A stretch of 64,000 bases of DNA from a virus, in IMG/VR virus record IMGVR_UViG_3300035162_004467, positions 21,311-85,310 of that record; one strand, given 5' to 3'. Shown in pieces: positions 459-22,355 of the stretch; position 1 is the stretch's first letter; each line of letters opens with the position of its first letter. The translations under genes and the position numbers were made by a program. The notes under the pieces were generated by a model. That model had not been told where the DNA came from and searched no databases. It saw nothing but the letters and a program-made list of their open reading frames with translations.

Positions 459-845
459 ATGAAGGTTTATCAGCAAGTAACAGGTAAAGAAGAGTCAATT
501 GTTAATTTAGATATATTAGTCGAGAATACTTACTCTGGATTCTATGTAGCTGCTGGCACTGGAGATGTTGTTACTGGAGAAGGAGGTAGCACAGGATTAC
601 TTAACAGTGGCTTTGTGTTTTCTGGATATGAGGGGTATGTGTTTGATCAGTCTGGCAGGTTTGTTGGAGGATATGCACCAAATGTCCCAGTCAATATTTC
701 CGTTCATATGAAAAGCGACGACACTTACTCTTATTTTATCGATGATGTGTTGATCGCCAATAATGTTTCGGGTTCGACTGGATTTGATTATATTGAGTTT
801 GAAAAACATGGGGATGCTTCTCTTAATATTGAGTATATTTTTTAG
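459..845 (+). CDS. Small putative virion protein, S/T-G rich
   Basis: 128 aa, acidic, beta-rich, in tail module; 10 of 17 Gly are preceded by S/T. Confidence 0.6.
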   Translation: MKVYQQVTGKEESIVNLDILVENTYSGFYVAAGTGDVVTGEGGSTGLLNSGFVFSGYEGYVFDQSGRFVGGYAPNVPVNISVHMKSDDTYSYFIDDVLIANNVSGSTGFDYIEFEKHGDASLNIEYIF

Positions 846-896
846 TATTTGTTGATATATTCTTTTTTTTTACGATAATATGTCGTTGAAAAGCAT

Positions 897-1679
897 ATGA
901 AAGAGCTGTATTCATTCCAAATTAAAAGAAAAGCAAAGCTTAAAACCATTGTCCAGAAAGAGAATGCGAAAGGGAAGATTGTAGAGTCTACAAAGACTAC
1001 AACTAAAACCATTTCTCACAAAGTTATTTTTGCTAAGCCCTCTTACGCAGAAATTGAAAATGCAGAATTCTTTTATGGGCAGCAATATAATGATTACATT
1101 AATGCTGGGTATCTTACTAGATACTTATTAAATAAGAAAATTGAGGATGCTGGAGGAGGTTCTTCTAAGTCAAGTAATGATTTCATTAATAAAGCTTTTG
1201 TTGACAATATGGAGGCAGCTAAAGTTATTGAGTTCTACGAAGGTCAAAAAGATTTAGATGAGGAACAAAAGAAAAAATTAGAGGGAGCTAAAGAGGTATT
1301 TGTTGAAACACAAAAAAATGTATCGGATTTCGAAGAGTTCCATAGAATCCAATATAATCAGACAGCAGAAGCAAAATCTGAACAAAAGCTTATTGAGTGG
1401 TTTATTTTTAATTTTTCTTACTATGAAGATAAAATACAAGACTCTACTGAGACTTTCCCGCTTTTTGTAGGGGATGATTTCACAGAAAAAAGAGAGCATT
1501 ACTTGCAACTTTGTGAAGATGAGGAGGATCTAGAAGACCCAACTATCTTGAAGAACAAAGGTATTTTTGACCTTTCTTTCGAGACCTTGGCTAAAGTGGC
1601 GAACTTGTGGTATAACAAGATGGGTTCAGGCCAAAAAGAAATTGAAGAGAGTATTAAGGAAGTATTTGGTGATGGATGA
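897..1679 (+). CDS. Hypothetical protein, possible tail assembly chaperone
   Basis: 260 aa charged helical ORF between tube and tape measure genes; call is from synteny only. Confidence 0.45.
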   Translation: MKELYSFQIKRKAKLKTIVQKENAKGKIVESTKTTTKTISHKVIFAKPSYAEIENAEFFYGQQYNDYINAGYLTRYLLNKKIEDAGGGSSKSSNDFINKAFVDNMEAAKVIEFYEGQKDLDEEQKKKLEGAKEVFVETQKNVSDFEEFHRIQYNQTAEAKSEQKLIEWFIFNFSYYEDKIQDSTETFPLFVGDDFTEKREHYLQLCEDEEDLEDPTILKNKGIFDLSFETLAKVANLWYNKMGSGQKEIEESIKEVFGDG

Positions 1680-2536
1680 GCGAACGAACTTCATTGCTAC
1701 TCTTAGATATATTAAGGGGTTATAGTAAAATAACCTATAAATATAAAAAATACTATTTTAAACACTTCAAGATATACGATAGTCTAAAACTTGAAGAGTT
1801 TGAGTCAGATTGTATACATCAAGCTAAGAAACAGGGCATTAAGGGTGAAAAGCAACTCTTAGAACAAGCTATTAAAAGAGGCAATTGGTCGAAGGAGGAG
1901 GAAGCTTCACAGAAAGATTTGAAGTGGATGATTGATAAATCAAGAAAAGCCTCTTTAAAGATAGCAGATAATAATACGAAAAAAAGTTTTGAGGATTCTA
2001 TTCGGAAACAAGTTGATGAACTTGCCGAACTAGAAATTAAAAAAAATCAATTCATCATTCATAGTGCTGAAAATTTAGCCAGAAGGAAAAGGGTAAATGA
2101 AGAAATTAGTCTGAGTCTTTTTTACAATGAAGAGATGACAGAAATTATTAGTGAAGACGACCTAATTTTATTACTTCCCGAAGTTAACTTATTAATAAAT
2201 GACCTAAGTAATTCTGAAAAGATACTTAAGGTTTCTTACGATCCTTCTTTTTTTGATATCTATTGTTTAAATTATAGACAGCCGAACAAGATAATAGACA
2301 AAACCATTTATGACATAACTATATGGCAAAAAAATCTGTTGTCTTACGCTTCTGTTCTTTTAAATAAGCTGCAAAACTATGATATTCCTGACGATGTTAA
2401 AGAGGATGCATTGAAATTATATAATTTCCAGCAAAAAGAGGACTCCTCGAAAGAAGATAAAGTCACAGAAGGGGTATCTGATCTGAGGGCTAAAATGGCG
2501 CAAAATGGAGGAAAGCTGACAGCAGAAGACTTTTAG
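1676..2536 (+). CDS. Hypothetical protein, possible tail assembly chaperone
   Basis: 286 aa helical ORF, ATGA-coupled to the previous gene, directly upstream of the tape measure gene. Confidence 0.45.
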   Translation: MSERTSLLLLDILRGYSKITYKYKKYYFKHFKIYDSLKLEEFESDCIHQAKKQGIKGEKQLLEQAIKRGNWSKEEEASQKDLKWMIDKSRKASLKIADNNTKKSFEDSIRKQVDELAELEIKKNQFIIHSAENLARRKRVNEEISLSLFYNEEMTEIISEDDLILLLPEVNLLINDLSNSEKILKVSYDPSFFDIYCLNYRQPNKIIDKTIYDITIWQKNLLSYASVLLNKLQNYDIPDDVKEDALKLYNFQQKEDSSKEDKVTEGVSDLRAKMAQNGGKLTAEDF

Positions 2537-2541
2537 TGTAT
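2536..2541 (+). promoter_or_regulatory. GTGTAW motif upstream of tape measure gene
   Basis: GTGTAT 9 nt before ATG 2551. Confidence 0.55.
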
Positions 2542-2550
2542 TAAATTGCG

Positions 2551-5500
2551 ATGCCTGCTCCAATTAATATTAATGCTAATTTAAACTTAAATCCAGCTAG
2601 TATCAATGCCTCTGCCAAGCAGGTGCAACAAGCTTTAGGTAGAATTACAGGCCAAGCTTCTGAGTTTCAAAAATCTCTAGATGCGTCTACCGCTCGTGTC
2701 TTTGCTTTTGGAGCTACTACTACTGTGATTAACGGGATTACCCAATCTTTTAGGGCATTAGTGTCAACCACTATTAATGTAGAAGCGAAGTTAAAAGAGA
2801 TTAATTCTATCTTAGGTGCAGGAGCTTCAGAGTTCAACAAATATAGAAATTCAATTTTTCAGGTAGCTAAAAGCACAGGGCAATCGTTTAACACTGTAGC
2901 AGAAGGTGCTGCTGAACTTGCTAGGCAAGGTCTTGGTGCAGCAGAGAGTGCTAAAAGATTAGAAGCCGCTCTTGTTCTTACTAGGATTTCTGGACTTGGA
3001 GCGGAGCAATCAGTGAAGGCTCTAACAGCAGCAATGAATGGTTTCACTTCTGCTGGGTTAACTGCGGAGCAAGTGGTTAACAAAATTGTTGCTGTTGATA
3101 CTGCATTTGCTGTTTCTGCTCAAGACCTTGCCGATGGTTTTAGTCGAGCTGGATCTACGGCAGAAGATGCGGGAGTTTCTTTCGATGAACTGCTTGGTTT
3201 AATTACCGCTGTTGAGCAGAGGACTGCGCGAGGTGGAGCTGTTATTGGTAACGCATTTAAATCAATTTTTACTCGCTTGAGCAGGGGTTCTACAATCGAA
3301 GATCTACAATCATTGGGCGTTGCGATAGATGCAAACCAGTCTGGTGTACAAAAATTAAAATCTTTATCTGACGCATTGGAAAAGATATCTGATCCAACTA
3401 TAGCAAGTCAAATCAAAGAACTCGCTGGTGGTGTGTTCCAAATTAACGTTGTTAGTGCCGCATTAAAAGATATTGGCAACGATGCTTCTATTTTTGGGGA
3501 GGCCACCACGACTTCTTTTAAGGCTATAAACGAAGCTACGGAAAAAAATAATGCTCTTAATGATACACTGAAAGCCAACTTAAATTCTCTTGTTGTTAGC
3601 GCGACAAGCCTTGGAGAGAAGATAGGCCAGCTTACTTTCGCTCCTTTGTTGGGGAGCCTAGTTGGGATTGGGACAACCTTAGCAGAAGGGCTAGATAAAG
3701 CTCTTGATCCAGAAAAAGGCAATAAATTTGTTCAAGGATTATTCAAGATTATTGGAGGATTTATCTCTGGTCCGGGGTTAGCATTATTTACATTAGCTTT
3801 TGTTAAGATCTTTAAGACCGTCCTCAGATTCGCTAGAGAAGGATTTAAGACGGTAATGGAAATGGGTTCTGCTGCCGAAAGAGTCAAGAATATTGAAGGT
3901 GGTATTGTTGGCTTATTACAGAAAGATGCTGGCTTAAGGAAGAAACTTGTAAGCACTACTGCGACACAAGCTCAAAAAGAACAAGCTGTAATCGCGGCCA
4001 TTAAAAAAGAGAACAGCTTATTAACTCAACAAGAACAGCTAGTAAGAAGGATTGCGAAGGCAACAGCTGCAAGAGGAGTTAGAGGGTATGGTGGATCAAC
4101 TGGTTTCACTGGCAAGCGAGGGAAGCGTTTCGCTGCTGGAGGGGAGGGACAAATGGAGCCGAACTTGATGACCGCTATGGCGAAGGAGGCTAGAGATGCT
4201 CCTAGTGGAGCGTCTCCTTTTGTAACTAATTTTAGAGGCAACCCTGCTGTTATGAACACTTCCGAAATGCAAGTTCGCATTAATGGAAGAGAACAAATCT
4301 TGCGCGAAGATCAAATCCCTAGATTTAACAAAGGTAGCGGGAAGAAGAACAAATTCAAAGGTCCAAAAGCGGGAGCCACAGGGACTAAGGTTGCGAATGA
4401 TAAAGAATTTGGAGATCGTTTCGTGATGTTGACTCCGAAAATAGACGAAAGAAGTCATTTCGGTCCAATGACGGTGGATGATAAGAAGCACAAGGCGACG
4501 CATCAAGTTCATGGAATAAAGTCATCTCAAATTAAAAAAGCGTCTGACAAGGAAGAAAATTCTCTAGAGAAAAGAGTTAAAGACAATTTATTTAAAGAGG
4601 CTGCTGATTGGACTTCAAGAATAAAGCCATTAGATAAATCTGCACCAGTATCTGAAATAGCAAAAGGATTTGATAGTACTCGTGGGGCCAAAGGAGCTTT
4701 ACAAGCTGCTATTGGGTCTGCATTTGAAGTGGGCATAAGCAAATCTTTAAAGTATGAGGCTAGAGAGAGAGATCAGGGTGGTGATTTCGATGTTAGAGGA
4801 GGGCCAAATATCAGCCAAATTCAAAAGCTTTTTGGGATACGTCAGACTATTGGTGATTTTAAAAATGCTAGCTCTGATGGAAACAAGAGATCATTCGTAA
4901 GAAAAGTAAGAAGAGAGAAACTGGCTGGAGCATTTACTAAAGAAGAGGCCGATCAACAAGCTGCAAAAGCAGCCGACAAAAAAGGAACGAACCTTAGATC
5001 CGAAAAGAGGAAAGCATATAGCGCACAAAGAGCGAGTAGAATGCCAAACTTACGTCGTAGAGTCCCAACTAATGCGAAAGGTTCATTGCCAAATTTAAAG
5101 TTAAACAAACATGTCCCTAATTACGCAGCTGGTAGTCTAATAAGACCTTTGCTAGGTCTTCTCAAAGGAGGGGGGAGAAGTAGTAAACTTCTTGGAGGAG
5201 GGGCGAGGAAAGCTTCTTTTGGGAAGAGAGCGAAACACCTTGTAGGCAGAGGGGTTGAGGGCGCAAAGCAGAGAGTCAAGGGTAGCGGAAGTTTAGGCGC
5301 GAGTATCGGCTTGAGCATGTTGTCAACCCAACTGCAAGAGGCGAACAAAGCAATAGAAGGTGAAGCGATAACTACCAAGCAAGCTCTTACGACTGTCGGG
5401 ACTGAGATGGCTAGTTTCGCTGCGACCGGAGCAGCGATAGGGGGTCCGATTGGTGCAGCTGCTGGAGCTTTAGTTGGTTTAGGAATAGGCTTATTTAAAA

Positions 5501-6948
5501 ATAAATCAGCTTTGGAAGAATACGGGGCAGCGTTGAAAGCTAATGAAGAGAAACAAAAGAAGCTTCAAAAAATAACGATAGCTCAAAGCGAAGGCTTTCA
5601 AGGGCGGAGTAAAGATACTGTCATGAGCCAATTAAGCAAGGTTGGTGGGGCAGGTTTCGAGAATCTTGATCTTAGAGCACCACTCCAAAATTTAGAGAAC
5701 CAACTAAAAGCATTAACAATGGAAGCTCCTACAGAAGAAAGGGGGCAGGATCAGATTGATAAGGAGCATGCAGCCACTTTAGTACAATATACAAAAAAAA
5801 CAAAAGAAGCAGGGGCAATAGCAGCAAAAACTGGGGAAATAATAAGAAAAGTAAATAAAGTAAGAGAACTTGAAGCAAAAATATTAAAATTTAAAAGCCA
5901 AAACGAAGGAAAAGCATTAAAATCAGCAGTAGCAAAACAGAGATCGAAACTTGATGATGCGTCAGACTTAATGAAAGGAGTCCAAGGGCCATTTGCAGGG
6001 ATTATAAACAGAGACCTTGATGTTGGAAAAAAACAAACAGATGCGGCTGATGCGAGGGGTGATCTTGAAGATTTAAAAACTCAGTTAAGAGTAACGCAAA
6101 ATCCAACCGAAAGGCTCGCGCTTAATGCAGAAATAAATAAGGCATCAGAAAACTTTAGCAAAAAAGTAAAAGATGCCGCTATTTTCATGGTGCAGAAGCA
6201 AACAGAAATAGCGAATAGACAAGCAGAAGTTGCTAAAGAGTCTGCTAAATTACAAACTGAAGCTATTCAGACTGCTATATCAGGCATCTCCAAAGGAGTC
6301 CGAGGCGAAAAGATTAATCTCAACAATATATCAGATTTCAGGAAAGATTTCAAGGGCGCAAAGACAGACGAAGACAAGGCCAAGCTTATTGCTGAATTTG
6401 AAGGAACGACACTTTCTGGTTTGTCTGAAGCAATGAAAGAGGCTTTAAGGAAAGCGGCTGGATTAGCGTCTGGAGACAGTAGAGAGCTAATAGGCGAAAG
6501 TGGTCTAACGAGCCTTAATGAAAGTGCTCGTATCGAAGGAGGGGACAAGCTAGATAAAAAATCAAGAGATGATATCTATAATTCGATGCCATCAAAAGCT
6601 AATGACAAAAGAAGGAACGATTTGGACCAAATTGCAGCAGCATTAAAAACACAAGCTGATGGATTAGCGACAAAAATGAAGGACTTCGGGAAAGCATTTC
6701 AGGCTGAAGCCGTAACAGCTGAGATGGCGAAAGTGGGAGCGGCATTGAACAAAGCAGCTGAAAATGCAGAAGCATTAGCTGGGGCGACAGGTGTAGTTAC
6801 CAGCATAGCAACAAAGGTCAATGGACTAATAACTAGGGTCGATGTAAACCTTGATGTCCAAGCGAAAAGACTGGATGTACTTGAAGGACAAAGAGATACA
6901 ACGAACGCACAAGTGAACGACATGGCTGAAGCTCTAGCACCCAAATGA
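2551..6948 (+). CDS. Tail tape measure protein (TP901-like core)
   Basis: 1465 aa Ala/Gly/Lys-rich helical protein; core motifs ELARQGL, AGSTAEDAGVSFDELLGLITA, GGAVIGNAFKSIFTRL; hydrophobic segments. Confidence 0.9.
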   Translation: MPAPININANLNLNPASINASAKQVQQALGRITGQASEFQKSLDASTARVFAFGATTTVINGITQSFRALVSTTINVEAKLKEINSILGAGASEFNKYRNSIFQVAKSTGQSFNTVAEGAAELARQGLGAAESAKRLEAALVLTRISGLGAEQSVKALTAAMNGFTSAGLTAEQVVNKIVAVDTAFAVSAQDLADGFSRAGSTAEDAGVSFDELLGLITAVEQRTARGGAVIGNAFKSIFTRLSRGSTIEDLQSLGVAIDANQSGVQKLKSLSDALEKISDPTIASQIKELAGGVFQINVVSAALKDIGNDASIFGEATTTSFKAINEATEKNNALNDTLKANLNSLVVSATSLGEKIGQLTFAPLLGSLVGIGTTLAEGLDKALDPEKGNKFVQGLFKIIGGFISGPGLALFTLAFVKIFKTVLRFAREGFKTVMEMGSAAERVKNIEGGIVGLLQKDAGLRKKLVSTTATQAQKEQAVIAAIKKENSLLTQQEQLVRRIAKATAARGVRGYGGSTGFTGKRGKRFAAGGEGQMEPNLMTAMAKEARDAPSGASPFVTNFRGNPAVMNTSEMQVRINGREQILREDQIPRFNKGSGKKNKFKGPKAGATGTKVANDKEFGDRFVMLTPKIDERSHFGPMTVDDKKHKATHQVHGIKSSQIKKASDKEENSLEKRVKDNLFKEAADWTSRIKPLDKSAPVSEIAKGFDSTRGAKGALQAAIGSAFEVGISKSLKYEARERDQGGDFDVRGGPNISQIQKLFGIRQTIGDFKNASSDGNKRSFVRKVRREKLAGAFTKEEADQQAAKAADKKGTNLRSEKRKAYSAQRASRMPNLRRRVPTNAKGSLPNLKLNKHVPNYAAGSLIRPLLGLLKGGGRSSKLLGGGARKASFGKRAKHLVGRGVEGAKQRVKGSGSLGASIGLSMLSTQLQEANKAIEGEAITTKQALTTVGTEMASFAATGAAIGGPIGAAAGALVGLGIGLFKNKSALEEYGAALKANEEKQKKLQKITIAQSEGFQGRSKDTVMSQLSKVGGAGFENLDLRAPLQNLENQLKALTMEAPTEERGQDQIDKEHAATLVQYTKKTKEAGAIAAKTGEIIRKVNKVRELEAKILKFKSQNEGKALKSAVAKQRSKLDDASDLMKGVQGPFAGIINRDLDVGKKQTDAADARGDLEDLKTQLRVTQNPTERLALNAEINKASENFSKKVKDAAIFMVQKQTEIANRQAEVAKESAKLQTEAIQTAISGISKGVRGEKINLNNISDFRKDFKGAKTDEDKAKLIAEFEGTTLSGLSEAMKEALRKAAGLASGDSRELIGESGLTSLNESARIEGGDKLDKKSRDDIYNSMPSKANDKRRNDLDQIAAALKTQADGLATKMKDFGKAFQAEAVTAEMAKVGAALNKAAENAEALAGATGVVTSIATKVNGLITRVDVNLDVQAKRLDVLEGQRDTTNAQVNDMAEALAPK

Positions 6949-6969
6949 TTAGCTGATAATTTTTTTTAA

Positions 6970-8514
6970 ATGAGCCTTTTAGTAAATAATGTAGTCGATT
7001 CTAACTCGCAAATCTCGTACTCTTATTTAGAGAGTGAAGATGTCTTTGGGTATTTAGTTACTTTAAACTATACTTTAAAAATAGAAGATGTGCTTTTCGA
7101 TAATAACGATGGAGTTCTTCTTTCTGGTAGAGCAGCAATTAGGGCAGCTTACAAAAGACAAAATATAACAGCAAGGATCGCTGGTGACGAAATCCTTAAT
7201 GGATTAATTACTAACGTTTCCTTTGGAGAAGGATCTCTCAATGGTGAAGATACAGTTAGTATTGGGATTCAAGAAAGGAGGAGATTAGATGATTACAGTT
7301 CAAAGACTTTTGCGAAATACATCCCTAACCCTCATTTATTAGAAAGCTTCGCAGAAAGCTATACATTCAGTAGGTCTGGTTCAGATTACTCATATTCAAG
7401 GAATATATCTATTAAGTATTCTCAAGATGCAGGAAATCAATTTTTGACAAACGCCAAGATATTTCTCACTAACTATTACTACTCTAATAGGCCCAACTTA
7501 GGATACTATGAAGATGGTATATCTGAAAACGCTAGGTTTAATGATAATTATAATGGAACTCTCAATCAGGCAATAGATTTAGTAAACTTATCTGTTAATC
7601 TTCAAGAAAATTTTGACTCTTCTTTTATTGTTGATTCTGAAAATGTATCTAAGAAAATTACTAATTCAATCTCTATTGATCAAAGAGGTTATTTGGAGAA
7701 AGTAATTAATGTTGAATTTACTTCTATAAAGTATGATTCATCTAATGTTTTAGGTTCTGCTATCGCGTCAACAATAGATAGCATAATTTCTGACGAACAG
7801 ACTAAATTTGGGAAGCCATTTTCAATAGAAAAAGGGATAGCCAAAGATTCAAGAAGGGCTAATCTATCTATTAGCTTCTCTACTAACCCAGCGCTATCAC
7901 AAGATAATAGCGTTATTTATAACTGCGCCAAAAATAAAGCTGGAGCATTTTTTGAATACGATTTGAGTGTTACATACAAAGCTAAAGATAAGAACTCTCA
8001 AACAAGATATGACAGCGTTTTAGCTTTATGGACCTCCAACAAAGATAAAAATGAAAGCAAGGTTGTAGGTTTGTTTTCAGAAGCCACAGACATATACGAG
8101 AAATCAAGATCGTCTACAATTGATAAACCCAAAGGGTTAGTGACAGAAAATATAAAATATACTACTGATGACTCGTATGACTCTGGTCCTTTACCAAAAG
8201 GCATATTAAAATTCAATATTTCGGTTCAGAAGCAAGATAAGGTTAAAAGAAGTTCTGTTGTTCTTGATTTAACAAATCTAAAGCAAAAGCTCGTGACTTC
8301 CGATTTAAATAAGCTGGGTTCAGCTACTGTCACAGCTACCGTTACTTCAGACCCAGCATACGGGAACTTTCATGGGAAGGACTTCTTAAATGGGAAAACC
8401 TCAGAAATGAATGCATTTTTAGAAGAGACAACCTTTTATGCTGCGAGTGATATTGTATCATCTAATTTGTCAGATGGGACTACAACTCGTGTAATACAAT
8501 ATATAATCGCTTAA
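6970..8514 (+). CDS. Putative tail/baseplate structural protein
   Basis: 514 aa S/T/N/Y-rich beta protein directly after the tape measure gene. Confidence 0.55.
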   Translation: MSLLVNNVVDSNSQISYSYLESEDVFGYLVTLNYTLKIEDVLFDNNDGVLLSGRAAIRAAYKRQNITARIAGDEILNGLITNVSFGEGSLNGEDTVSIGIQERRRLDDYSSKTFAKYIPNPHLLESFAESYTFSRSGSDYSYSRNISIKYSQDAGNQFLTNAKIFLTNYYYSNRPNLGYYEDGISENARFNDNYNGTLNQAIDLVNLSVNLQENFDSSFIVDSENVSKKITNSISIDQRGYLEKVINVEFTSIKYDSSNVLGSAIASTIDSIISDEQTKFGKPFSIEKGIAKDSRRANLSISFSTNPALSQDNSVIYNCAKNKAGAFFEYDLSVTYKAKDKNSQTRYDSVLALWTSNKDKNESKVVGLFSEATDIYEKSRSSTIDKPKGLVTENIKYTTDDSYDSGPLPKGILKFNISVQKQDKVKRSSVVLDLTNLKQKLVTSDLNKLGSATVTATVTSDPAYGNFHGKDFLNGKTSEMNAFLEETTFYAASDIVSSNLSDGTTTRVIQYIIA

Positions 8515-8515
8515 A

Positions 8516-10129
8516 ATGGCAACTTCGATCACATACGGGAGCTACTCTTTCCCAGAACCAATACCTCTTTTCTCCGAAGAAGATCAGGTTGTGAAACTTG
8601 CTGGCCTTTCGGATCATAGCACAATTAGGGTGAATTTGATTGGTTTTCTCACTGGGAGTGATTTAAGTGGATTATATTTGCAAAAAATGCAAATGGTTAG
8701 TGGTTTTCTAAATGAATATGAAGACTTAACTATTACAATTGGGAATGAGACTAAAACTTGTCCTTGTTCCTTCGTAGAGGGTGTTGAGTTCGGTCAAAGT
8801 GACTCTACTACAGTCCTACCATATAACTTAACTGCACTATATTATTCTGGAGAAACTTTTTCAGAATATTTTGGAGTTACAGACCCACAAAACTCTTGGT
8901 CTTATGACGAGGGGGATAATAAAGTAATTACCGCTACTCATACTCTTTCGGCGAAAGGACTGAAAGTAAATTCTGAAGATCCCTTTAGTAATGCTCGTAC
9001 ATTTGTGGAAGGGAAGCTTGCTGATGGATTTGAAAATATCGCTTTATTCAATAGTGGCGATAATGCCTTCTTGATATCTAGGACGGAAAATGTAGATAAA
9101 AAATCTAATGTTTATGGAGTCACTGAGGTATACTCATACTCTGCTGCTGATAGAGATAACTCTGCTAGATCTTATTCTGATAGTGGCGTTGTAGATCTTT
9201 CAACTTCTATTAGCTTTAGTAACGATAGTCAACTTTCAATTGCTGTTAATGGGAGTATCAAAGGCAGTATAGATGCAAACACAGGTACTCAAGTTGGGTT
9301 ATTAACTACTGGGAATTTTACTTCAGCACAAGCGACTGATGTTGCGATGAATGCGCTAGTTAATTCCTACTCTGATTATGAATCAGGGGTTTATAGTTTT
9401 GTCCAAGAAGGTCCAACTGCGTTTAATTACAATTTAAATACTGGAGCTAATTTACTTGAATTTTCATTCACTTTCGATGACGCTGATAAAGTAGATTTAA
9501 TAAATGGTAACGTTTTACATTCCTACGTTTCCTCTATTAGTTTGTCAAAAGATTCTGCTGTGTCTTCTGTCTCCATCCAAGGAGATCTAAAATATTTTGG
9601 GACTTTGTCTATTGACTCGACAGGAGAATTTGAAAACAATGCTCGCTTTCAGGCTATAGAATCAGCCCTCAGTGAAGTAGATCAATATTCAATAGCTGTA
9701 TCTGCCATTCAAGATTTCTCTGGAGTAGCTACTGGTTACGAAATTAATTCATCTTATATCAAAGTCGAGCCAGAATCTTTCTCTATATCGAAAGATCCTG
9801 TTGAAAATACCATTTCATATAATTATAATTATAATAACCAAATAGACTTTTCGACAGGGCAATTAAAAAATTTATCTCTTAACATTCAGGACAAACCACC
9901 TCTTGTTATTAATAGTGTCCAAGAAACAATAAGTGGATTCCAAGCTGCTGAAGTTATATCTAGAAGTTTAGGCAATTATTCTATTTCGGCAACCTGTAAT
10001 AATGATGGGAGTAAATTAGATACGTTGAGGGGGCTGATATCTGGTTATTGCACTGGAGTTTATGTCATATCAGAGTCTTATTCTACAGGACAAAATTCAA
10101 TATCATATAATTTAGCAAAATATTACTAA
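8516..10129 (+). CDS. Putative tail/baseplate structural protein
   Basis: 537 aa, beta-rich, translationally coupled; 18 S/T-G dipeptides. Confidence 0.55.
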   Translation: MATSITYGSYSFPEPIPLFSEEDQVVKLAGLSDHSTIRVNLIGFLTGSDLSGLYLQKMQMVSGFLNEYEDLTITIGNETKTCPCSFVEGVEFGQSDSTTVLPYNLTALYYSGETFSEYFGVTDPQNSWSYDEGDNKVITATHTLSAKGLKVNSEDPFSNARTFVEGKLADGFENIALFNSGDNAFLISRTENVDKKSNVYGVTEVYSYSAADRDNSARSYSDSGVVDLSTSISFSNDSQLSIAVNGSIKGSIDANTGTQVGLLTTGNFTSAQATDVAMNALVNSYSDYESGVYSFVQEGPTAFNYNLNTGANLLEFSFTFDDADKVDLINGNVLHSYVSSISLSKDSAVSSVSIQGDLKYFGTLSIDSTGEFENNARFQAIESALSEVDQYSIAVSAIQDFSGVATGYEINSSYIKVEPESFSISKDPVENTISYNYNYNNQIDFSTGQLKNLSLNIQDKPPLVINSVQETISGFQAAEVISRSLGNYSISATCNNDGSKLDTLRGLISGYCTGVYVISESYSTGQNSISYNLAKYY

Positions 10130-11511
10130 TGAGCGATATAGGTTTACTTTTTAAATTGCAAGATAAGCAATCGTCTAACCAGAAGCTATCAGCTTTTTAT
10201 GATTTTACATTTGACTCTTCAGATGAAGCCAATGTACAAGGAGATAGTAGTAGTTCGACTTACACAGGAGTGCAAGTCAACTCTACTTTCGCCAATGATA
10301 CTTCTTTACATACTGGATTTTTACTTGGGTCTATAGATAGTAGTGAAGCTAGTTCACTGATAAAGGCTTCGGGTATATTGCAAGGAAATAAGCTAAATTT
10401 AACTTCTGGAAATTTTCAAGTTCCTTTCGATGGTTTGAACGCAAACGATATATCAGTCTTGATCGATTTCGAGTTTGCTGACGGAGATTTTGATGATGGA
10501 ATTATCATGGGTTGTTTCAAAACTGGAGAAGAAACGATTAATTCCTTAAATATAGAAACTTCTGAAGGATTCAATATTGGAGTTACCGATAGGGGTCATT
10601 TGTTTTGTCAAACTTTTGGACCTAATGGTGATGCGATTAATATAGCTCACCCTATAGAGCTATCTAAAAGAAATTTAATTTCAGTATCTACAACAGATAC
10701 TTTTATCACACTTAGTTATTTTGATTATTTCAATGACTTAGTGAGAAGCTTGGCGTTGCCTGTAGATAGAAATTATATTTCCTCTACTTCAGTGTTGAAT
10801 TTCGGAGGTAGCGATACTTATTTTAGATCAACGGACAATGAAACTGCAACATTTAGCGGGAGTTTAAATAGTCTAGCCATTTTCTCTGGTTACATAGAAG
10901 AAGAGTTTTTAAAAGATTTGGGGGAAGGTATGCTTGGTAGTTACAGCTTTACTGCTGGGTCTACAGTCACAGAGCAAAGACTTACTGGATATGCTGATAC
11001 AATCAGTTATAAAACTGGAATAACTGGCTATGATTATATCTCTACTGGCACATTAGAGATAATTACAGGAAGAGAAGAATTTACTGGTAGTACATCACCG
11101 GCTTCTCCAGACAGTAAAAAAGAAGGGGAGCGTTACTACAAGTATTATACGTTAAATAATGGTAACGTTAAAACATTCTATAAAGAAGAGTTGGGCCAAC
11201 TCCATTCAGATTCTGGATATATTTATTATCCAACGGGAGAAGGCGCTTTTGACACTTTAGGTTTAAACGATATATCTGAATCAATAGATGCTTATACAGA
11301 GCTTACTGGGATGACTCAAGATAAAATAACGATTGATTTGTTTGGGAAGACTCCTTTGACTGGCACACTTTCTGAAGTCAGTGGAGTTGTCCAGACTGCT
11401 TTGGAAGAAACTTATTCTATATATACCCCAAGTTCTTCTGGAGTAACTCTTGAAGAAGATAGCGAAGATTTTAAGAAAAACTTTATTTATTACATGGGAG
11501 GTCGGTCATGA
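10129..11511 (+). CDS. Putative virion protein with LamG/ConA-like N-terminal half
   Basis: GFNIGVTDRGHLF and LNFGG...FSGSLNSLAIFS resemble LamG-like domain motifs; TG-rich C-terminal half. Confidence 0.5.
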   Translation: MSDIGLLFKLQDKQSSNQKLSAFYDFTFDSSDEANVQGDSSSSTYTGVQVNSTFANDTSLHTGFLLGSIDSSEASSLIKASGILQGNKLNLTSGNFQVPFDGLNANDISVLIDFEFADGDFDDGIIMGCFKTGEETINSLNIETSEGFNIGVTDRGHLFCQTFGPNGDAINIAHPIELSKRNLISVSTTDTFITLSYFDYFNDLVRSLALPVDRNYISSTSVLNFGGSDTYFRSTDNETATFSGSLNSLAIFSGYIEEEFLKDLGEGMLGSYSFTAGSTVTEQRLTGYADTISYKTGITGYDYISTGTLEIITGREEFTGSTSPASPDSKKEGERYYKYYTLNNGNVKTFYKEELGQLHSDSGYIYYPTGEGAFDTLGLNDISESIDAYTELTGMTQDKITIDLFGKTPLTGTLSEVSGVVQTALEETYSIYTPSSSGVTLEEDSEDFKKNFIYYMGGRS

Positions 11512-12314
11512 CTTACAATTATATTGTATCTACTGGAGACTCTACTATATCAGGTAGTGTTCTAAATATTTTGGATAACAATCAAATCTCTTATTCTAGA
11601 CAACAATATGAAAAAGATATATATGTCATTCGAGACGAGGATGGGGAACAAAAAGAAAACCCATTTTATTTTAATGATTCTATAATCACGGGATCAAATT
11701 GCTCTTTATTAAGCCTCAACTCTCAAACTTTACTTGAGGGAGGATTTTCTATCACAACTGGGGCAAACAAATATTATTATAATATAAATGACTCTGGTAA
11801 TTATGTTGTTGATGCAGAGAATTCAAAAGGTAATATTATTTTTGATCCAGTTTTAACCTTAGGCTATCAGGATTTCATCCTTTATGATAAAAGAGATTTT
11901 GCTACTGGAATTTTAATTTACTCTACTTCTTCTTTTGATTTTATAGCTATTGATGCTCTTAGATCTAAAGTAGATTCTGCTTATTCTAATGCTTCGACAG
12001 CAGGGCTTTTATTTGATAATTACGATGTTTTTTTTAATGGGCAAAAGTTAAAGTTATATGAATACCCCAATTCTACTGTTACAGGGAACTTCTTTGCTAT
12101 CCCCAAAAAAGATGGAATAATTGATGTGCATTCTGATGAGCCTGATTTATTCGGGTCAGGATTTGTAGAGCACCACCTTGATCTTTATTTAAATGGAATG
12201 GAGCAAGATAATCAAGATTGTCTTCAATTGTATACTGGAGTGTATATGATAGAGACAGGGGTGAACTCTTCGTTCACTTTGGTTAGTGAAGAAACAGAAA
12301 CTTATGTATTGTAA
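11508..12314 (+). CDS. Putative virion structural protein
   Basis: 268 aa, acidic; two D(V/L)(F/Y)(F/L)NG motifs; tail operon context. Confidence 0.5.
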   Translation: MTYNYIVSTGDSTISGSVLNILDNNQISYSRQQYEKDIYVIRDEDGEQKENPFYFNDSIITGSNCSLLSLNSQTLLEGGFSITTGANKYYYNINDSGNYVVDAENSKGNIIFDPVLTLGYQDFILYDKRDFATGILIYSTSSFDFIAIDALRSKVDSAYSNASTAGLLFDNYDVFFNGQKLKLYEYPNSTVTGNFFAIPKKDGIIDVHSDEPDLFGSGFVEHHLDLYLNGMEQDNQDCLQLYTGVYMIETGVNSSFTLVSEETETYVL

Positions 12315-14830
12315 TGGCTATTATTGGTGAAAGAGAAACATTAACATCTTTAGACTTTAATTTCTCCAGTTCAGGAGGTAATCATTCTGCAACTGTTCAA
12401 AGCGTTTTTGACGCAAAAGATTTGTCTGATTCAGAAAGTGAACTTGGGACATTGATTGGTTCTAGTGCTGGTAAGGTTACATTTTCTAATGATGAAATTG
12501 ATAACTTGATGAAGAATTTCATACAAGTTGAGAAGACCGTGCAACAAGATGGAAACAAAAAAACAGTTTCTAGAAAACTTCAAGATTCAACATCTCTAAG
12601 ATTAAAATCTCACTGTTTTATTGTCAGAGGTAGGGACTCCCATCCTCATGATAAGGGGGTTTCTGGAATAAGTAATGCTCAAGTAAGAGATTTGACTGCT
12701 TCTGGAATGCTGATTGACGGATTGGGGATTTCTAAGCCTAGAGTTTCTTCTGGAGCAGGAGCAGAAGTAATTCTTCCTTATTTCGGAGAATTACCTAATA
12801 GCCCAATAACAAGTTCTGCACAAAGATTTCCCTTCAGGAGACCGACAAGGTTGAATGGTAGTGGGGTTATAGCAATTGGGAATGTTTATAATGAAGAAAG
12901 CTCTGTAAATTCTGACGGAAGAAAAACTTCTTTGTCTTATCAAAGTGGGGATCTGAAAGAGAAGATTAGTTTCAACGAAGAGTACGTAAGTACTTTTTAT
13001 AAAGACAATCCAGATTTATCTAATTACGACTTGAATTTTGGCTACACTTTGCGGGAAGCGAAGCGAGGTTTCGGTTTGGCTGGCATCACATTGGCAGGAT
13101 TGCCAGAATCAGCCACAGATGAAGTCTTGTTTAGCGAGTCTGGAACTTTAGATTCAATAGCGTCAAGCATTGCTTCTAAATATGGATATTATTGGTTTAT
13201 CGATCCATTTAGCTTTGGATTAATAAAATTCATAAACTCAGCTTCTGCTTCTCAATTAGGTATAACAAATCCATTGACGCAATCAGGAGATCTTCAAGAA
13301 AAATATGTAAACGCTTCATTCACGCAAAGCAATCTATCCCCAAAGATAGTCAATGCCTTTGGTTCGACAATTGAGAAACGGACTCAAACTTTTGATTTTG
13401 CTGAAGGCCAAAGATATGTTCGTTTCCATAAGCTGCAAATGAAGGGGATGAGTCAGTTTTTTAAATTTGATGAAAGTTTATTAGGATTATTTTATGGATT
13501 ATATCTCTCTGGTAAATTTGATGCATTTACTTTCGATGCTTTAGCTCATTATGCTACCTTTATAGACAAAAACAATAATGTTGAATGGGGTGACAATTGG
13601 GGAAATTCAGATCAAATCCGTGATGGGAAAACATGTGGATGGGGTACTTCTATAGCTGGTACGACAGTTAGAAAATACATGGAAGATCAATGGGATGGAG
13701 ATTTCAATTTAAAAACTGGAACATATGTGACGTTCCGAAAAAGTGTTGGCGGTGTGACAGGGGGGGGGAGGTTAACCAACCCATCTAGAAATAAGATATT
13801 TGGAAATCTAAAAGATTTTTTCGATTTAATATCTAGTTCTATTTATGTGTCTAACAAATTCTCACAATATAAAGCTAGAAGAATGCAGTGGGGAAGCTCA
13901 GATATGAGCATCTCTGGTCCTTTCGACATTCACGATAAGGACATCTCAGAGGTAGATGGACTTCAAACATTATACTCAGTATTAGAGTTAAATGGATTTG
14001 GAAATAAGAAATTAAATGATATATTTGCAAAATCAGACTCTTCTGGGACAGGGGGAAACCATGGATTTGTTGGAATAATTAAGGGGAACCAAAGACTTGC
14101 TGCGGGAAATAGCAAAAAAGATTTTGATTACGAGGCCGTTAATGATGAAAATTTTATTTTCATCAAAAATCCTCACACTAACGAAAACTTTTTTGGTTTC
14201 TCTAATAAATTCAAGAACAGCGTAGATAATTTGATAACGAAATCTGTTGGGATGTATCAAAAAATTAAGGCATCGGAAAGCCGAGATGCTCCAAACACAT
14301 CAAAAGCTTATTATACTAGAGTTAGACAGCCAACAGATGAAGAAGGAACAGAAGAAGACAGAAAGCAGGAGGAAGCCAGAAATAGAAGGCAAGCAGGACT
14401 TGATGCCGCTGCTGAAAAACTCTCAGAGGTAGCGGAAAGATTTGATATAAGATACTTTAACGTTAAAACGAATGGGGCTTCTGGTGATCCGCTAGTTCCT
14501 ATTACTCTTGACACAAAGAATGGGAAAATTTCAGACATCAAAGCTTTAGAAGCAGCGAACTTTTCCGCAAGGCAATCTAGCTCTCAAAAAACTGCAACTT
14601 CTAGTAGGACTATAGTTGGTATCAGTTTACCGGATGTTTTTTCTGTTACACTTTCTGGCCTGACCCTAAAGCTGGGCAGTTCTGGAGTGACCACAACGAT
14701 TCAAGAATCGACGATGAAGCTATTGAAGCCTGATGAACAATTAATAATCAATGATGGCCAAAGAGCAGCCTTGGCTACAAGTTTCAATACTAATTTCTCT
14801 GCGAAACAGAAAAACTTCTTGGGGCTATAA
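12314..14830 (+). CDS. Putative baseplate hub / tail tip protein
   Basis: 838 aa, last gene of the tail operon; SGTLDSIASSIASKYGYYWFID resembles hub-protein segments. Confidence 0.45.
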   Translation: MAIIGERETLTSLDFNFSSSGGNHSATVQSVFDAKDLSDSESELGTLIGSSAGKVTFSNDEIDNLMKNFIQVEKTVQQDGNKKTVSRKLQDSTSLRLKSHCFIVRGRDSHPHDKGVSGISNAQVRDLTASGMLIDGLGISKPRVSSGAGAEVILPYFGELPNSPITSSAQRFPFRRPTRLNGSGVIAIGNVYNEESSVNSDGRKTSLSYQSGDLKEKISFNEEYVSTFYKDNPDLSNYDLNFGYTLREAKRGFGLAGITLAGLPESATDEVLFSESGTLDSIASSIASKYGYYWFIDPFSFGLIKFINSASASQLGITNPLTQSGDLQEKYVNASFTQSNLSPKIVNAFGSTIEKRTQTFDFAEGQRYVRFHKLQMKGMSQFFKFDESLLGLFYGLYLSGKFDAFTFDALAHYATFIDKNNNVEWGDNWGNSDQIRDGKTCGWGTSIAGTTVRKYMEDQWDGDFNLKTGTYVTFRKSVGGVTGGGRLTNPSRNKIFGNLKDFFDLISSSIYVSNKFSQYKARRMQWGSSDMSISGPFDIHDKDISEVDGLQTLYSVLELNGFGNKKLNDIFAKSDSSGTGGNHGFVGIIKGNQRLAAGNSKKDFDYEAVNDENFIFIKNPHTNENFFGFSNKFKNSVDNLITKSVGMYQKIKASESRDAPNTSKAYYTRVRQPTDEEGTEEDRKQEEARNRRQAGLDAAAEKLSEVAERFDIRYFNVKTNGASGDPLVPITLDTKNGKISDIKALEAANFSARQSSSQKTATSSRTIVGISLPDVFSVTLSGLTLKLGSSGVTTTIQESTMKLLKPDEQLIINDGQRAALATSFNTNFSAKQKNFLGL

Positions 14831-15601
14831 TTTTCTGATCGCAGCCCTTATCTTCCGAACTTCTTTTACTGGGATATCGCTAAAATCATTCCAGTTTTGA
14901 GCGTCTTCATTTTTATAAATTTCTTGCTTCCATAAAGAACGCAAAGCTCCTTTTTTAAAGTCTTCAAAATTGTGGCCTCCACCAGTTTGATCTTGCCAGT
15001 CTTGGAATAGTCTTGCATGAGGAGAAAGAATACGATCTATACTTTCATCGCTACAAGATTCAATTGATTGCGAATTGACAGCTCCTTTCGATTTATCAAT
15101 CTCATCAGCTCCAACGATATGAATGTTCAGGAAGTTACGGACACATCTTACGAAAGCTCTATTACAAGCAATAGTCTCTAGAAACTTTGCCGCGAAAGAA
15201 CCTGTATTTTGCAATGTAGCATTCGCCACATCTTGGTAACCAATGCGCTCTTTGTTGCTTTCATAGTTAGGAGACCAAACAATTTCACAACTAGCCACAA
15301 CATAAGTATCGTTAAGGTGGTTAGTATCGAATGAGACGCTTTCAAATCCTCTGAGTCGGGCCAACTCTTTAATGCCTCCTAACATAATCAAGAGCTGTTT
15401 ATCATCCAAGCCTTCTGAAGAAGTGGGGACATCTTTTTTGCGAGCTTCAAACCAGTCCTTGTTTGGATAAAGGAACTCTGATTTAATCATTGCCCTCCAA
15501 TCTACAGAACCATCCTCGCTAAATTCGTATTCTACATTTTCTAAAAGCCCATGTTCATTGCGCTTGTAAAGATCAGGTCCGTAAATTTTTTTATCACTCA
15601 T
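14825..15601 (-). CDS. Putative single-strand annealing protein (Rad52/RedBeta-like fold)
   Basis: Pattern LGGIKELA...beta strands...ANAT...LETIACNRAFVRCVRNFLNI...ADEI resembles the SSAP helix motif. Confidence 0.55.
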   Translation of the reverse strand: MSDKKIYGPDLYKRNEHGLLENVEYEFSEDGSVDWRAMIKSEFLYPNKDWFEARKKDVPTSSEGLDDKQLLIMLGGIKELARLRGFESVSFDTNHLNDTYVVASCEIVWSPNYESNKERIGYQDVANATLQNTGSFAAKFLETIACNRAFVRCVRNFLNIHIVGADEIDKSKGAVNSQSIESCSDESIDRILSPHARLFQDWQDQTGGGHNFEDFKKGALRSLWKQEIYKNEDAQNWNDFSDIPVKEVRKIRAAIRKL

Positions 15602-15602
15602 T

Positions 15603-16712
15603 TCAATCAGTATAAAGCATAAGTTTATCTAAGTCAACGAAAATATCGTCTAAATTTTCTTCGCTGTTAGCTTCGAAAAGAGAGTGATACGCTTTTCTAT
15701 TCTTGAAGTAAATTGTATAAGATTTTATTTTTAAATTCTTTTTAGGCAGTTTTAGCTGTTTTTTATTTTTTTCTATTTTTTCAGATTCGTCAATTAGAGC
15801 GATCTGATCATCAAAAAACTTATACCTTTCCTCTTCGAGAGTTTCTTCGTTTGTGCAAAACAAACGCAAAGCAACTCCTTTCTTTTTAGCTTGTTCGATG
15901 AACTCTGCATCAAAGCGATCAGAGAAATAATTTATACAGTTTATGTTTTTTTGACTTAAAACTTGGTCCCCTAAAGGTTTGTTGGTAACGATTGAAATTT
16001 GGTTGTCTTTGAATAAATGAAGAGTATTTTCTTCGTTATGAAGTAAATCAAACCTAAGGACTATCTTTTTGGAAGATGCATCATATTTATGATCTGGTAT
16101 AATATGAATGAATTCTTCTTTATATTTACCCCCAATAAAAATCGTTTTTCTAGAACTTTTATTTTTACCTAATTTTTTAAGAATAGCATTAGCTATTTGC
16201 TCTGGATTAATTAAGTTAATTTGTTTGGGGTTCTCTTTCAAAGAGTAGGATGGTTTCTTCCCATTTCTATGAGATTCAATTATCGCATGGTTCTTTTTCG
16301 AACCCCAAACTGGACTGCAAGTAGAGGCATGTGTGTGCGCGTATATCGCAACAATAGGCTTGTCAAAAGAAGAGGCAATGTGAACTGGCAAACTATCTAT
16401 CCCAACATGCATAAGCCCATTCTTAATAATGTAAGCAGATTGCTTGATACTTTGAGTAGCAGCGAACTTTGTAACGTTTTTTATTTTTGGTTCTCCCCCA
16501 GAGCCTATTTGAATAAACTTAATATCTGGAGCTTTTTGCTTGACTAAAGATATAACCTCCTCCCAATAATCGTATTCTTTAGATTGAACTTTATTATCAT
16601 TGTGAATGGTAATATAATTCTCTTCAAGAAGAGGAAAAAAATGAGGTTTAAAATGTGGTTCACCAATCTTAACTCCCAAATCTTTTGCGTAAACTTCTAC
16701 TAGGTGGCTCAT
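15603..16712 (-). CDS. Glycosyltransferase family 9-like (heptosyltransferase-like) protein
   Basis: KEYDYWEEVI, IQIG, HVGIDSLPVHIASSFDKPIVAIY are the GT9 nucleotide-binding signature. Confidence 0.8.
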   Translation of the reverse strand: MSHLVEVYAKDLGVKIGEPHFKPHFFPLLEENYITIHNDNKVQSKEYDYWEEVISLVKQKAPDIKFIQIGSGGEPKIKNVTKFAATQSIKQSAYIIKNGLMHVGIDSLPVHIASSFDKPIVAIYAHTHASTCSPVWGSKKNHAIIESHRNGKKPSYSLKENPKQINLINPEQIANAILKKLGKNKSSRKTIFIGGKYKEEFIHIIPDHKYDASSKKIVLRFDLLHNEENTLHLFKDNQISIVTNKPLGDQVLSQKNINCINYFSDRFDAEFIEQAKKKGVALRLFCTNEETLEEERYKFFDDQIALIDESEKIEKNKKQLKLPKKNLKIKSYTIYFKNRKAYHSLFEANSEENLDDIFVDLDKLMLYTD

Positions 16713-18415: not shown

Positions 18416-18992
18416 CATCATCGTCGTCCTCAACTACGGACGCTTTAGGTGCAGATTTCTGATAAGTTTTTTGTGACTGTTCCTGTTTATAATCCTTCTT
18501 GTAAGCTTCTGATTGAGCAATCAGGCTTTCTTTAATATACCCTTCAAGGAGAACCGCTAAACATTCAGCTTCTCCAGCTTCAATTGGTAGCTTGAAGAAT
18601 TGTGAAGAGTTTTTTGTAATAGTTAAACCCCAAGCTGGAGATTTGAAGGTTTCTTGGCCATCTTTGTTCTTGATAATGCGATTTTTATCCCAAGGAGTAA
18701 ATTTAATGATGGTGGTTTTTTCTTCTGTTTTATGAAAGCCCACAAAAGGAATGCGTGTTTTCATGCAAGACAGGAATTCGCCAGCTTCATTTTCTGTTAA
18801 CTTAATCGTAGTTGACTTATCTGGATTTTTAGCATTTTGCTTAAAAGAGCCTGTTTTCGTCTGATCATTCCAACTGTGTTGTAGGATCATTGAAACAAAA
18901 AGTACAGACTTCCCATTTCTGTCTTTAGTAGAATCAAAAGTGAAAGCAGATCCAGTATTCTTAGCATTTGGCTTATAAAGTGTAAATTTCAT
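18402..18992 (-). CDS. Single-stranded DNA-binding protein, Whirly/PC4-like core with SSB-type acidic tail
   Basis: Ends in EDDDDDVPF; two repeats of beta strands plus helix (IKLTENEAGEFL; LPIEAGEAECL). Confidence 0.65.
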   Translation of the reverse strand: MKFTLYKPNAKNTGSAFTFDSTKDRNGKSVLFVSMILQHSWNDQTKTGSFKQNAKNPDKSTTIKLTENEAGEFLSCMKTRIPFVGFHKTEEKTTIIKFTPWDKNRIIKNKDGQETFKSPAWGLTITKNSSQFFKLPIEAGEAECLAVLLEGYIKESLIAQSEAYKKDYKQEQSQKTYQKSAPKASVVEDDDDDVPF

Positions 18993-20048: not shown

Positions 20049-20432
20049 TTAATCAAGATCTATCTTTATCTTGGGAGTTCCGATAGCCTTTTGTTTGTCG
20101 GACATGTGCTTTTTGCCCACTTTCTTTTCGTAGTCATTAAAAGCTTTCCTTTTGACTGGATCTTCTCCACCGTTAGCTCCTGCCCTTTTCTCTGACAATT
20201 CTGAGGAATAATCCAGAACATCACCTATAGTTCCTTTCATTTTGCCAGTTTTCTCTACAAACCCATTGTGATCCCAAGCGTCATCTTTAGTGTCAATTGA
20301 TGCATGAGGGGCTATAAATACTCTTTTCCATTCTAGGCCGAACTCATCAATATGGATGTGTTCTTCATTCATTCCTTGAACGACTTCTTTGTGTTCTCCT
20401 GTCTCTGGGTGTTTGTAGATATAAATGGCCAT
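20049..20432 (-). CDS. FmdB-like zinc-ribbon-fold protein lacking cysteines
   Basis: MAIYIYKHPETGEHKEVVQGM...WKRVF matches the FmdB-like pattern without the Cys ligands. Confidence 0.5.
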   Translation of the reverse strand: MAIYIYKHPETGEHKEVVQGMNEEHIHIDEFGLEWKRVFIAPHASIDTKDDAWDHNGFVEKTGKMKGTIGDVLDYSSELSEKRAGANGGEDPVKRKAFNDYEKKVGKKHMSDKQKAIGTPKIKIDLD

Positions 20433-20433
20433 A

Positions 20434-22096: not shown

Positions 22097-22153
22097 GCTT
22101 AACTATGGATTATGCTAGGGGTATTCTGGTAAAAATCAAGTAATTTTTTTTTG

Positions 22154-22181
22154 TTGACGGATTTTTTTCCACCAATAGAAT
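22154..22181 (+). promoter_or_regulatory. sigma70-like promoter
   Basis: TTGACG-16 nt-TAGAAT with an upstream T tract, in a divergent intergenic region. Confidence 0.5.
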
Positions 22182-22293
22182 AGACGTATTGGAAGCCGCA
22201 TCAGTAAGGATACGAACCTTTGCAGTACAGTAAGGATGCGTAGTAAAGATACGTATTCTATTAATACTCACTTCGTTCGCATTAATAGAATAG
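22174..22293. repeat. Three 13-bp direct repeats plus overlapping inverted repeats
   Basis: YAGTAARGATRCG at 22202, 22228, 22241; TATTCTATTAAT (22254-22265) pairs with ATTAATAGAATA (22281-22292). Confidence 0.8.
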
Positions 22294-22344: not shown

Positions 22345-22355
22345 TTAGATAGGAA

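Follow-up and report, generated by a model that had tools for sequence, protein, structure and literature searches.

The window analysed here is a 64,000-nucleotide (nt) stretch of viral DNA, bases 21311–85310 of an 85,310-nt IMG/VR contig (IMGVR_UViG_3300035162_004467) whose completeness is estimated at 62%. Genes follow tailed-phage order across the contig, and a small set of baseplate and tail-tip proteins is rich in one ordered dipeptide, Ser or Thr followed directly by Gly ([ST]G below). Selection maintains this dipeptide in certain baseplate proteins, whatever their fold, and the set of proteins concerned differs between lineages. We consider it a candidate acceptor motif for O-glycosylation by glycosyltransferases encoded among the same genes.

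[ST]G was counted in the translations of 52 open reading frames (ORFs) of the window, and each protein was compared with 2000 shuffles that keep its composition. In five of the 52, and in the first 210 amino acids (aa) of the product of 48723–50639, Ser or Thr precedes 41–60% of glycines (z 3.1–5.6). The proportion is about 10–20% in neighbouring proteins, capsid, tape measure and enzymes. The five ORFs, all on the plus strand, encode p128, a small tail-module protein (459–845; 10 of 17 glycines, 2.5 expected, z 5.6, p 0/2000); p537, a Dit-like baseplate hub protein (8516–10129; 18/40, z 3.7, p 0.0005); p460, predicted to combine a concanavalin-like lectin-fold domain with a long beta-ribbon (10129–11511; 19/46, z 3.1, p 0.004); p268, a baseplate-module protein (11508–12314; 10/20, z 4.1, p 0/2000); and p330, a repeat-rich fibre-like protein whose gene lies between two transferase operons (19031–20023; 16/34, z 3.9, p 0.0005). 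The remaining region is the N-terminal ~210 aa of a 638-aa fibre-like protein (48723–49352, plus strand), with 12/20 (z 4.0); the remainder of the protein has 8/52 (z −1.4). The N-terminal part holds three 24-residue repeats, LR-x-A-TG-YI-SG-x-I-x-SNDTEL, with two sites in each.

Four more ORFs reach only p 0.01–0.05 (40897–43188, 44974–45774, 46910–48133 and 58818–60566), and the three proteins encoded directly before the window show a mild rise (z 1.6–2.9). The controls are flat: p514, a neighbour rich in Ser and Thr and depleted of the motif (6970–8514, plus strand; 3/28, z −1.2), RecA (4/29), DnaE (6/47), the tape measure protein (TMP; 18/142, z −0.1) and the capsid protein encoded upstream (3/28). 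The initial annotation had noticed the pattern by hand counting. Its counts in the enriched ORFs were all reproduced by program, and the shuffles confirm the excess; its 12 sites in the first ~210 aa of 48723–50639 were recovered, and the low counts it gave for 6970–8514, RecA and DnaE were borne out. In 26 T4 proteins, baseplate, beta-helix and fibre proteins included, and 19 proteins of mycobacteriophage Che8, the maximum z was 2.2 and at most 30% of glycines followed Ser or Thr.

The signal belongs to the pair in this order. Within the enriched proteins [ST]G occurs at 2.1–2.9 times expectation and G[ST] at 0.67–0.96 times; [ST]A is close to 1, [ND]G lies at 0.6–1.0 times and [ST]xG at 0.55–0.84 times. 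Thr before Gly is 3.0-fold and Ser before Gly 1.7-fold over expectation in the pooled enriched set, and both are at ~1.2-fold in the remaining proteome. The sites are encoded by 21 different codon pairs, so the signal lies in the protein, and a motif at the DNA level is ruled out.

Enrichment in families was measured on non-redundant orthologues from 54 syntenic IMG/VR loci, which give about 30–45 relatives per family. Observed over expected is 2.86 for p128 (29 orthologues, mean z 3.6), 2.21 for p537, 2.16 for p460, 2.41 for p268 (39 orthologues) and 2.21 for p330 (32 orthologues), with mean z of 3.6–4.5. Families encoded between these are not enriched (p260 0.29, p286 0.67, TMP 0.95, p514 0.48 in 45 orthologues, p838 0.89, p258 0.67), and both transferase families stand at ~0.9. 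Homologues of p537 collected from 5.8 billion proteins (106 sequences of 35–100% identity, mostly from marine metagenomes, Tara among these) have a mean z of 4.35, with on average 48% of glycines after Ser or Thr. In G025, a complete relative, z exceeds 3 in only 5 of 150 ORFs of at least 100 aa; four of the five are the orthologues of p128, p460, p268 and p330, and the fifth is a fibre of the leucine-rich repeat (LRR) type. Shared ancestry of the five enriched families was also considered, and hhalign found no mutual similarity among them (probability <1% for all pairs).

Which proteins carry the motif changes from lineage to lineage. p460 and p268 are enriched in every relative seen, with maxima of 29/45 (z 7.9) for p460 and 16/21, at locus L052, for p268; the other carriers vary. 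At locus L056 p537 has only 3/24, yet p460 has 29/45, p268 15/24 and p330 22/39. At locus L062 p537 (2/29) and p128 (3/16) are flat; p460 (22/47) and p268 (10/20) are enriched. Within enriched proteins both residues of the pair are better kept than their peers: in comparisons of pairs that are not independent, Ser or Thr at sites is changed in 36% of cases, one third of these being Ser–Thr swaps, against 57% for other Ser and Thr, and Gly at sites is changed in 20% against 33% for other Gly.

The Dit-like protein allows the motif to be separated from the fold that carries it. Residues 1–111 of the p537 model (predicted local distance difference test score, pLDDT, 78) resemble the tail-tube/Dit fold, with VIA Z of 11.7 to the 80alpha baseplate, 10.3 to SPP1 Dit and 10.1 to TP901-1, and the gene lies two ORFs after that for TMP, as fits Dit. 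A Foldseek search of the PDB with the same model gave weak rows only, none at E ≤0.001. A profile search of 1.84 billion representatives returned 596 Dit-like proteins, and z ranges from −2.9 to 7.1 among the 120 that are full-length. Fairly close homologues with only 4–18% of glycines after Ser or Thr are among them (P0110, P0111, P0113, P0114, P0118, P0119, P0122, P0126 and P0129). Across 212 family members the other glycines are constant at 22–28 per protein, and [ST]G adds 0–30 on top.

We took 18 alignment columns in which enriched members keep [ST]G and read them in ten non-enriched members. The 180 cells hold [ST]G in 20 cases, another residue with Gly in 25, Ser or Thr with another residue in 27, unrelated pairs in 103 and gaps in 5. 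Replacement pairs are NG, DG, NS, DS, PD, EK and the like, and only T46–G47 is universal among the 18 columns. Since homologues that lack [ST]G have residues typical of loops in these columns, the alignments indicate that the Dit-like fold does not need the motif. p514, which is encoded directly before p537, has a weak profile similarity to it (hhalign E 0.006 over ~390 columns, probability 6%). The two may be old paralogues, one depleted of [ST]G and the other enriched.

Sites sit in different structural contexts in different proteins. In the p537 model they occupy loops, hairpins and the ends of strands and helices; of its 18 site glycines, 14 are in coil, 4 at helix ends and none inside a strand, and 6 of the 22 other glycines do fall within strands. 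The p460 model (pLDDT 80) shows a lectin sandwich and then a long two-stranded ribbon. Here most sites fall inside DSSP strands, nine of them along the ribbon, and at residues 286–320 TG recurs every 3–10 residues within the predicted ribbon. With contexts that differ in this way between p537 and p460, no single structural role fits. Residues ~17–270 of p460 give VIA Z of 15.5–12 to CBM40, AbnA domain 4, the PilC lectin module and the Pan3 and CBA120 tailspike domains. The model thus places the N-domain in the concanavalin-like lectin/glucanase fold, a jelly-roll of ~200 residues, and the likeness is one of fold only. p128 may be a paralogue of one domain of the protein of an upstream 412-aa ORF that ends at window position 379. 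As a lead only, its protein-language-model neighbours are small domains of beta-sandwich or carbohydrate-binding-module type. In five relatives the best p128 match lies inside a ~420-aa protein at the position of that upstream ORF.

The motif-bearing genes are interspersed with genes for glycosyltransferases. TMP (1465 aa, 2551–6948) is followed by five baseplate-module genes (6970–14830), then by a first minus-strand cassette that contains transferases (14825–18992), by p330 as a single plus-strand gene, and by a second minus-strand cassette (20049–22373). The first cassette encodes GT4_574, a GT4-type glycosyltransferase of 574 aa (16709–18433, minus strand; Pfam Glycos_transf_1 at 6.4e-7, PHROG glycosyltransferase at 6.6e-23) that is 57–90% identical across relatives with a mean column identity of 74%. 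Its domain holds an invariant C276-H277-x-C279 ... C294-x2-C297 cluster, like a zinc-ribbon insertion. Among cultured phages the only hits of GT4_574 were distant GT4 genes, found in three cyanophage records and in one Pontimonas phage; p537 and p460 had no match by tblastn in 50,697 phage records, which therefore hold no cultured relative.

Also in the first cassette is a 369-aa protein (15603–16712, minus strand) whose first ~170 aa match a GT9 (heptosyltransferase-type) donor-binding domain. Residues 30–147 match Pfam Glyco_transf_9 at 3.9e-9, above the cut-off, and the family profile finds WaaF (1PSW) in the PDB at E 5e-4; its NCBIfam matches (heptosyltransferase III, RfaQ, II and I) are all far below their cut-offs. 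The C-terminal piece of GT4_574 (residues ~466–524) weakly resembles the N-terminus of GT9 enzymes (heptosyltransferase II in NCBIfam at E 0.005, 3TOV at E 0.29). The two ORFs overlap by 4 nt, and the two-ORF arrangement is kept in at least 40 relatives. A GT9 enzyme seems to be split over the two proteins, with a clear C-half and a weakly matched N-half in GT4_574. Single-sequence PDB searches with the two transferases gave nothing useful.

The initial annotation had cited enzymes of the TibC/AAH type, the bacterial autotransporter heptosyltransferases (BAHT), as an established precedent. Membership of the phage enzyme in that group is not supported. The 369-aa protein matches heptosyltransferases of lipopolysaccharide (LPS) synthesis; NCBIfam at E ≤0.01 returned only LPS heptosyltransferases I, II and III and RfaQ, with no BAHT model or TibC, and the profile search of the PDB at E ≤10 returned WaaF, WaaC and NDH subunits, with no TibC.

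The second cassette encodes GT4_360, another GT4-type glycosyltransferase, of 360 aa (20434–21516, minus strand; PHROG at 1.1e-17, Pfam Glycos_transf_1 at 2.7e-5, just below the cut-off). It was found in 24 of 26 relatives' records, the two misses being truncated contigs. All three transferases are better conserved than the tail proteins. Their genes are core genes of the clade, placed among motif-bearing tail genes.

Further sugar genes lie at a distance. An island at 25629–31206 (plus strand), between ribonucleotide reductase and RecA, holds a GT2-like gene, an FkbM-type methyltransferase, four unknown ORFs, DUF5672 and GDP-mannose 4,6-dehydratase (Gmd), and its gene content differs between relatives. 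In G025 the island (72980–80244) has GT2, GT47 and GT-D-like genes, three methyltransferases, an epimerase and Gmd, and a sulfotransferase gene adjoins the LRR-type fibre genes of that genome. An island so changeable, and one that includes Gmd and methyltransferase genes, suggests that the glycan is complex. The window also encodes an NAD-dependent sugar epimerase (44974–45774, plus strand; Pfam Epimerase at 9.4e-41) whose best match is ADP-glyceromanno-heptose 6-epimerase (NCBIfam TIGR02197 at 2.9e-69, 233.6 bits, under the cut-off of 274.6). No GmhA or HldE-type gene was found among the ORFs scanned, which in G025 were 56 of the 92 that match nothing in this contig. Nor did the window, the upstream contig or those G025 ORFs show a hydroxymethylase or TET-type gene, which makes glycosylation of DNA less likely, though many ORFs have no assigned function.

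The transferase cassette is present in every relative among the 54 loci whose contig reaches it. Around non-enriched or remote Dit-like homologues, two loci have the cassette, L062 has a GT9 gene, and L071 and L072 have a transferase. L072 belongs to a remote lineage with 45% G+C, in which Dit is 22% identical and flat for the motif. Two of its tail proteins have 30/61 (z 5.9) and 47/72 (z 9.9) glycines after Ser or Thr, the latter with irregularly spaced sites and SGSG/SGTG doublets, and its record encodes a GT4_574 homologue that is 45% identical.

We give a probability of about 45% to the reading that [ST]G is an acceptor motif for O-glycosylation on baseplate and tail-tip proteins. The motif and its selection, the fold identities, and the finding that the enzymes are encoded and conserved are observations, and the step from them to transferases that act on these proteins at [ST]G is inferred. 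This reading is ranked first because it is most economical to suppose that something reads the sequence, and the transferases are the only conserved candidate readers beside the genes. Selection would then have kept this short acceptor motif in the Dit-like hub, the protein with the lectin fold, a pair of small proteins, one fibre-like protein and the root of a further fibre. Soluble glycosyltransferases encoded by the phage itself would attach O-linked sugars to Ser and Thr in the cytoplasm of the infected cell, before or during tail assembly, and the Gly that follows would give the enzyme room. First sugars would come from the three conserved transferases, and the strain-specific island, with Gmd, methyltransferases and more transferases, would supply and extend a variable glycan.

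Put as a statement about a whole large clade of uncultured aquatic phages (~120–150 kb), which we advance more tentatively still, a conserved three-protein set (a GT4 with the GT9 N-half, the GT9 C-half and a second GT4) would read [ST]G and O-glycosylate 10–50 sites per protein on the baseplate, and a swappable island would extend a strain-specific glycan. The adsorption apparatus would thereby wear a variable sugar coat, and the set of coated proteins would be reshuffled by gain and loss of the dipeptide. The initial annotation had likewise proposed [ST]G as acceptor of the phage's own transferases; the proposal is partly supported, in that the motif is selected, protein-specific, not required by fold and adjacent to transferase genes. 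Its dense glycan coat on exposed tail parts has to be narrowed. The tail-tip proteins are enriched, but the distal fibres and the capsid are not.

Several observations weigh against glycosylation at [ST]G. Enrichment is lacking in the most exposed parts, namely the capsid and the fibres of 2641 aa and 1143 aa, and the 19 proteins of Che8, a glycosylated mycobacteriophage, show no [ST]G bias. No transferase-less relative was found among those with a visible transferase region, so there is no negative control. At locus L075 (34% G+C) the protein encoded after Dit has 43/107 (z 5.9), and no transferase occurs within the 21.6 kb of its contig that could be read. The cassettes themselves may be early or middle operons, since they hold SSB-like and possible recombination genes: a 196-aa protein (18402–18992, minus strand) ends like the C-terminal tail of single-stranded DNA-binding protein (SSB), and a highly conserved 258-aa protein (14825–15601, minus strand) has faint neighbours in the protein atlas that resemble single-strand-annealing proteins or recombinases. 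The transferases may thus be expressed early and act on something else, such as the host envelope or DNA. The remaining points concern structure. Residues that flank the sites are often hydrophobic (I, V or F at −1; V, Y or I at +2), the sites lie at strand ends or in a predicted beta-ribbon, and the motif is most frequent where Gly itself is best conserved: of the glycines that at least 90% of sequences share, 54–77% follow Ser or Thr, the 77% being that of p330.

These last features are what a structural idiom would produce. [ST]G would be the way in which this lineage ends strands, makes tight turns or bulges and caps helices in oligomeric, beta-rich baseplate proteins; the backbone would be capped by the side chain of Ser or Thr, Gly would supply the left-handed conformation, and the transferases would serve some other purpose, such as alteration of the host envelope. 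The placement of p537 site glycines outside strands, the closely spaced TG along the p460 ribbon, and the occurrence of the motif within sequence repeats in p330 and in the N-terminus encoded from 48723 all agree with it. We rank it below glycosylation but regard it as a serious rival. Homologues of the same fold use ordinary turn residues instead, the baseplate, beta-helix and fibre proteins of T4 have no excess, and the contexts are too varied for one role. p514, a possible paralogue of p537, is depleted at 0.48 times expectation, and the most extreme protein, that with 47/72, shows irregular site spacing and SGSG/SGTG doublets in place of a regular repeat.

A reader other than a glycosyltransferase is improbable. 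It could be another modification, such as phosphorylation, an assembly chaperone, or host surface polysaccharide in direct contact with hydroxyl-Gly loops. Directional selection across unrelated proteins implies no more than that the sequence is read or needed by something, the fold of p460 is of lectin type, and many ORFs of the cassettes and island have no known function. The transferases are, though, the only conserved candidate enzymes beside the motif genes, and scans of the window, the upstream contig and 56 G025 ORFs revealed neither a kinase nor any other enzyme that modifies proteins. An excess due to chance or composition is refuted for practical purposes: the enriched proteins are indeed rich in Ser and Thr (15–23%), but z is 3–5.6 against shuffles that keep composition, the equally rich p514 falls below expectation, Gly before Ser or Thr shows no excess, and about 30–45 orthologues per family keep the enrichment. 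What probability remains lies with causes beyond the readings considered here.

Several known systems offer partial parallels to glycosylation at [ST]G. TibC is described as a GT-B-like dodecameric heptosyltransferase, and the TibA test peptide as Ser-rich with Ser directly before Gly (PMC4358343). In TibC/TibA and AAH/AIDA-I a soluble, cytoplasmic enzyme of GT-B heptosyltransferase type hyperglycosylates many Ser residues of a beta-rich surface protein. BAHT enzymes use ADP-heptose as donor and are marked by an iron-finger motif, a beta-hairpin thumb and a dodecameric ring. On the phage side there are a domain of GT9 type and a gene resembling heptose epimerases. The phage GT9-like protein, however, matches LPS heptosyltransferases and appears to be split over two proteins, its candidate substrates are tail proteins of several folds rather than autotransporter beta-helices, and Thr is used more than Ser. 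The comparison is one of analogy, not of membership. The split itself recalls Alg13/Alg14, a GT-B enzyme with its N- and C-domains on two polypeptides, although the match of the phage N-half is weak (E 0.005 and E 0.29).

Mycobacteriophages Che8, Corndog and Myrna are reported to bear glycans on their capsid and tail-tube subunits, at the C-terminal ends (Freeman et al. 2023, as cited in PMC12619734). There, phage-encoded transferases decorate the phage's own virion proteins; here genes for transferases lie beside structural genes, the capsid shows no enrichment, and it is in baseplate proteins that the dispersed motif occurs. The motif is not shared with Che8. Chlorovirus PBCV-1 likewise encodes Gmd, methyltransferases and several transferases, with which a glycan is assembled in the cytoplasm. 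That glycan is N-linked, sits on the capsid of a eukaryotic virus and uses other sequons. For eukaryotic proteoglycan xylosyltransferase, a hydroxyl residue followed by Gly is a minimal acceptor of O-glycosylation. That enzyme acts in the eukaryotic secretory pathway and belongs to an unrelated family, and the analogy extends only to the possible importance of Gly at +1.

To our knowledge, virion glycosylation by phage enzymes is established only for a few mycobacteriophages, without a dispersed sequon, and our literature searches returned no paper on an [ST]G or heptose sequon in phages. Were the glycosylation reading correct, abundant marine and freshwater phages would sugar-coat their host-recognition machinery, and a sequence rule would predict coated virion proteins directly from metagenomes. 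It would explain the many transferases and variable sugar islands that are usually read as host-modifying 'auxiliary' genes, and it would bear on adsorption, particle stability, resistance to grazing and the annotation of phage structural proteins. Even if the motif is structural, a lineage-wide dipeptide rule that is independent of fold is unusual and would be useful when such proteins are modelled.

Upstream of the window lie terminase, a large ORF where a portal gene would be expected, an ORF with a weak match to capsid proteins, and ORFs at the neck position; beyond the second cassette follow, in order, ribonucleotide reductase, the sugar-gene island, replication genes and very large fibre genes. 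G+C is 31–44% across the window in 2-kb windows. G025 measures 147,748 nt, of which ~23 kb is repeated at the ends (the same ORF series runs from ~20.7 kb and from 145.1 kb), and the unit genome is therefore ~124 kb. One 30-kb contig (L076, CAKZOO010000042.1) with a p537 homologue 80% identical is binned in a metagenome-assembled genome of an uncultured member of the Flavobacteriaceae. This binning is a weak hint at that host group and is consistent with the low G+C. Between RecA and a DnaB-like helicase lies an ORF like HNH/homing endonucleases (32779–33186, plus strand; PHROG, 3.6e-17). Two proteins resemble the sigma-70 family, one encoded at 21509–22096 (minus strand) and the other at contig positions 7595–8296 (plus strand). 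Other genes include Hsp20 (25155–25619), a ClpB-like double AAA protein (40897–43188) and, upstream, PhoH.

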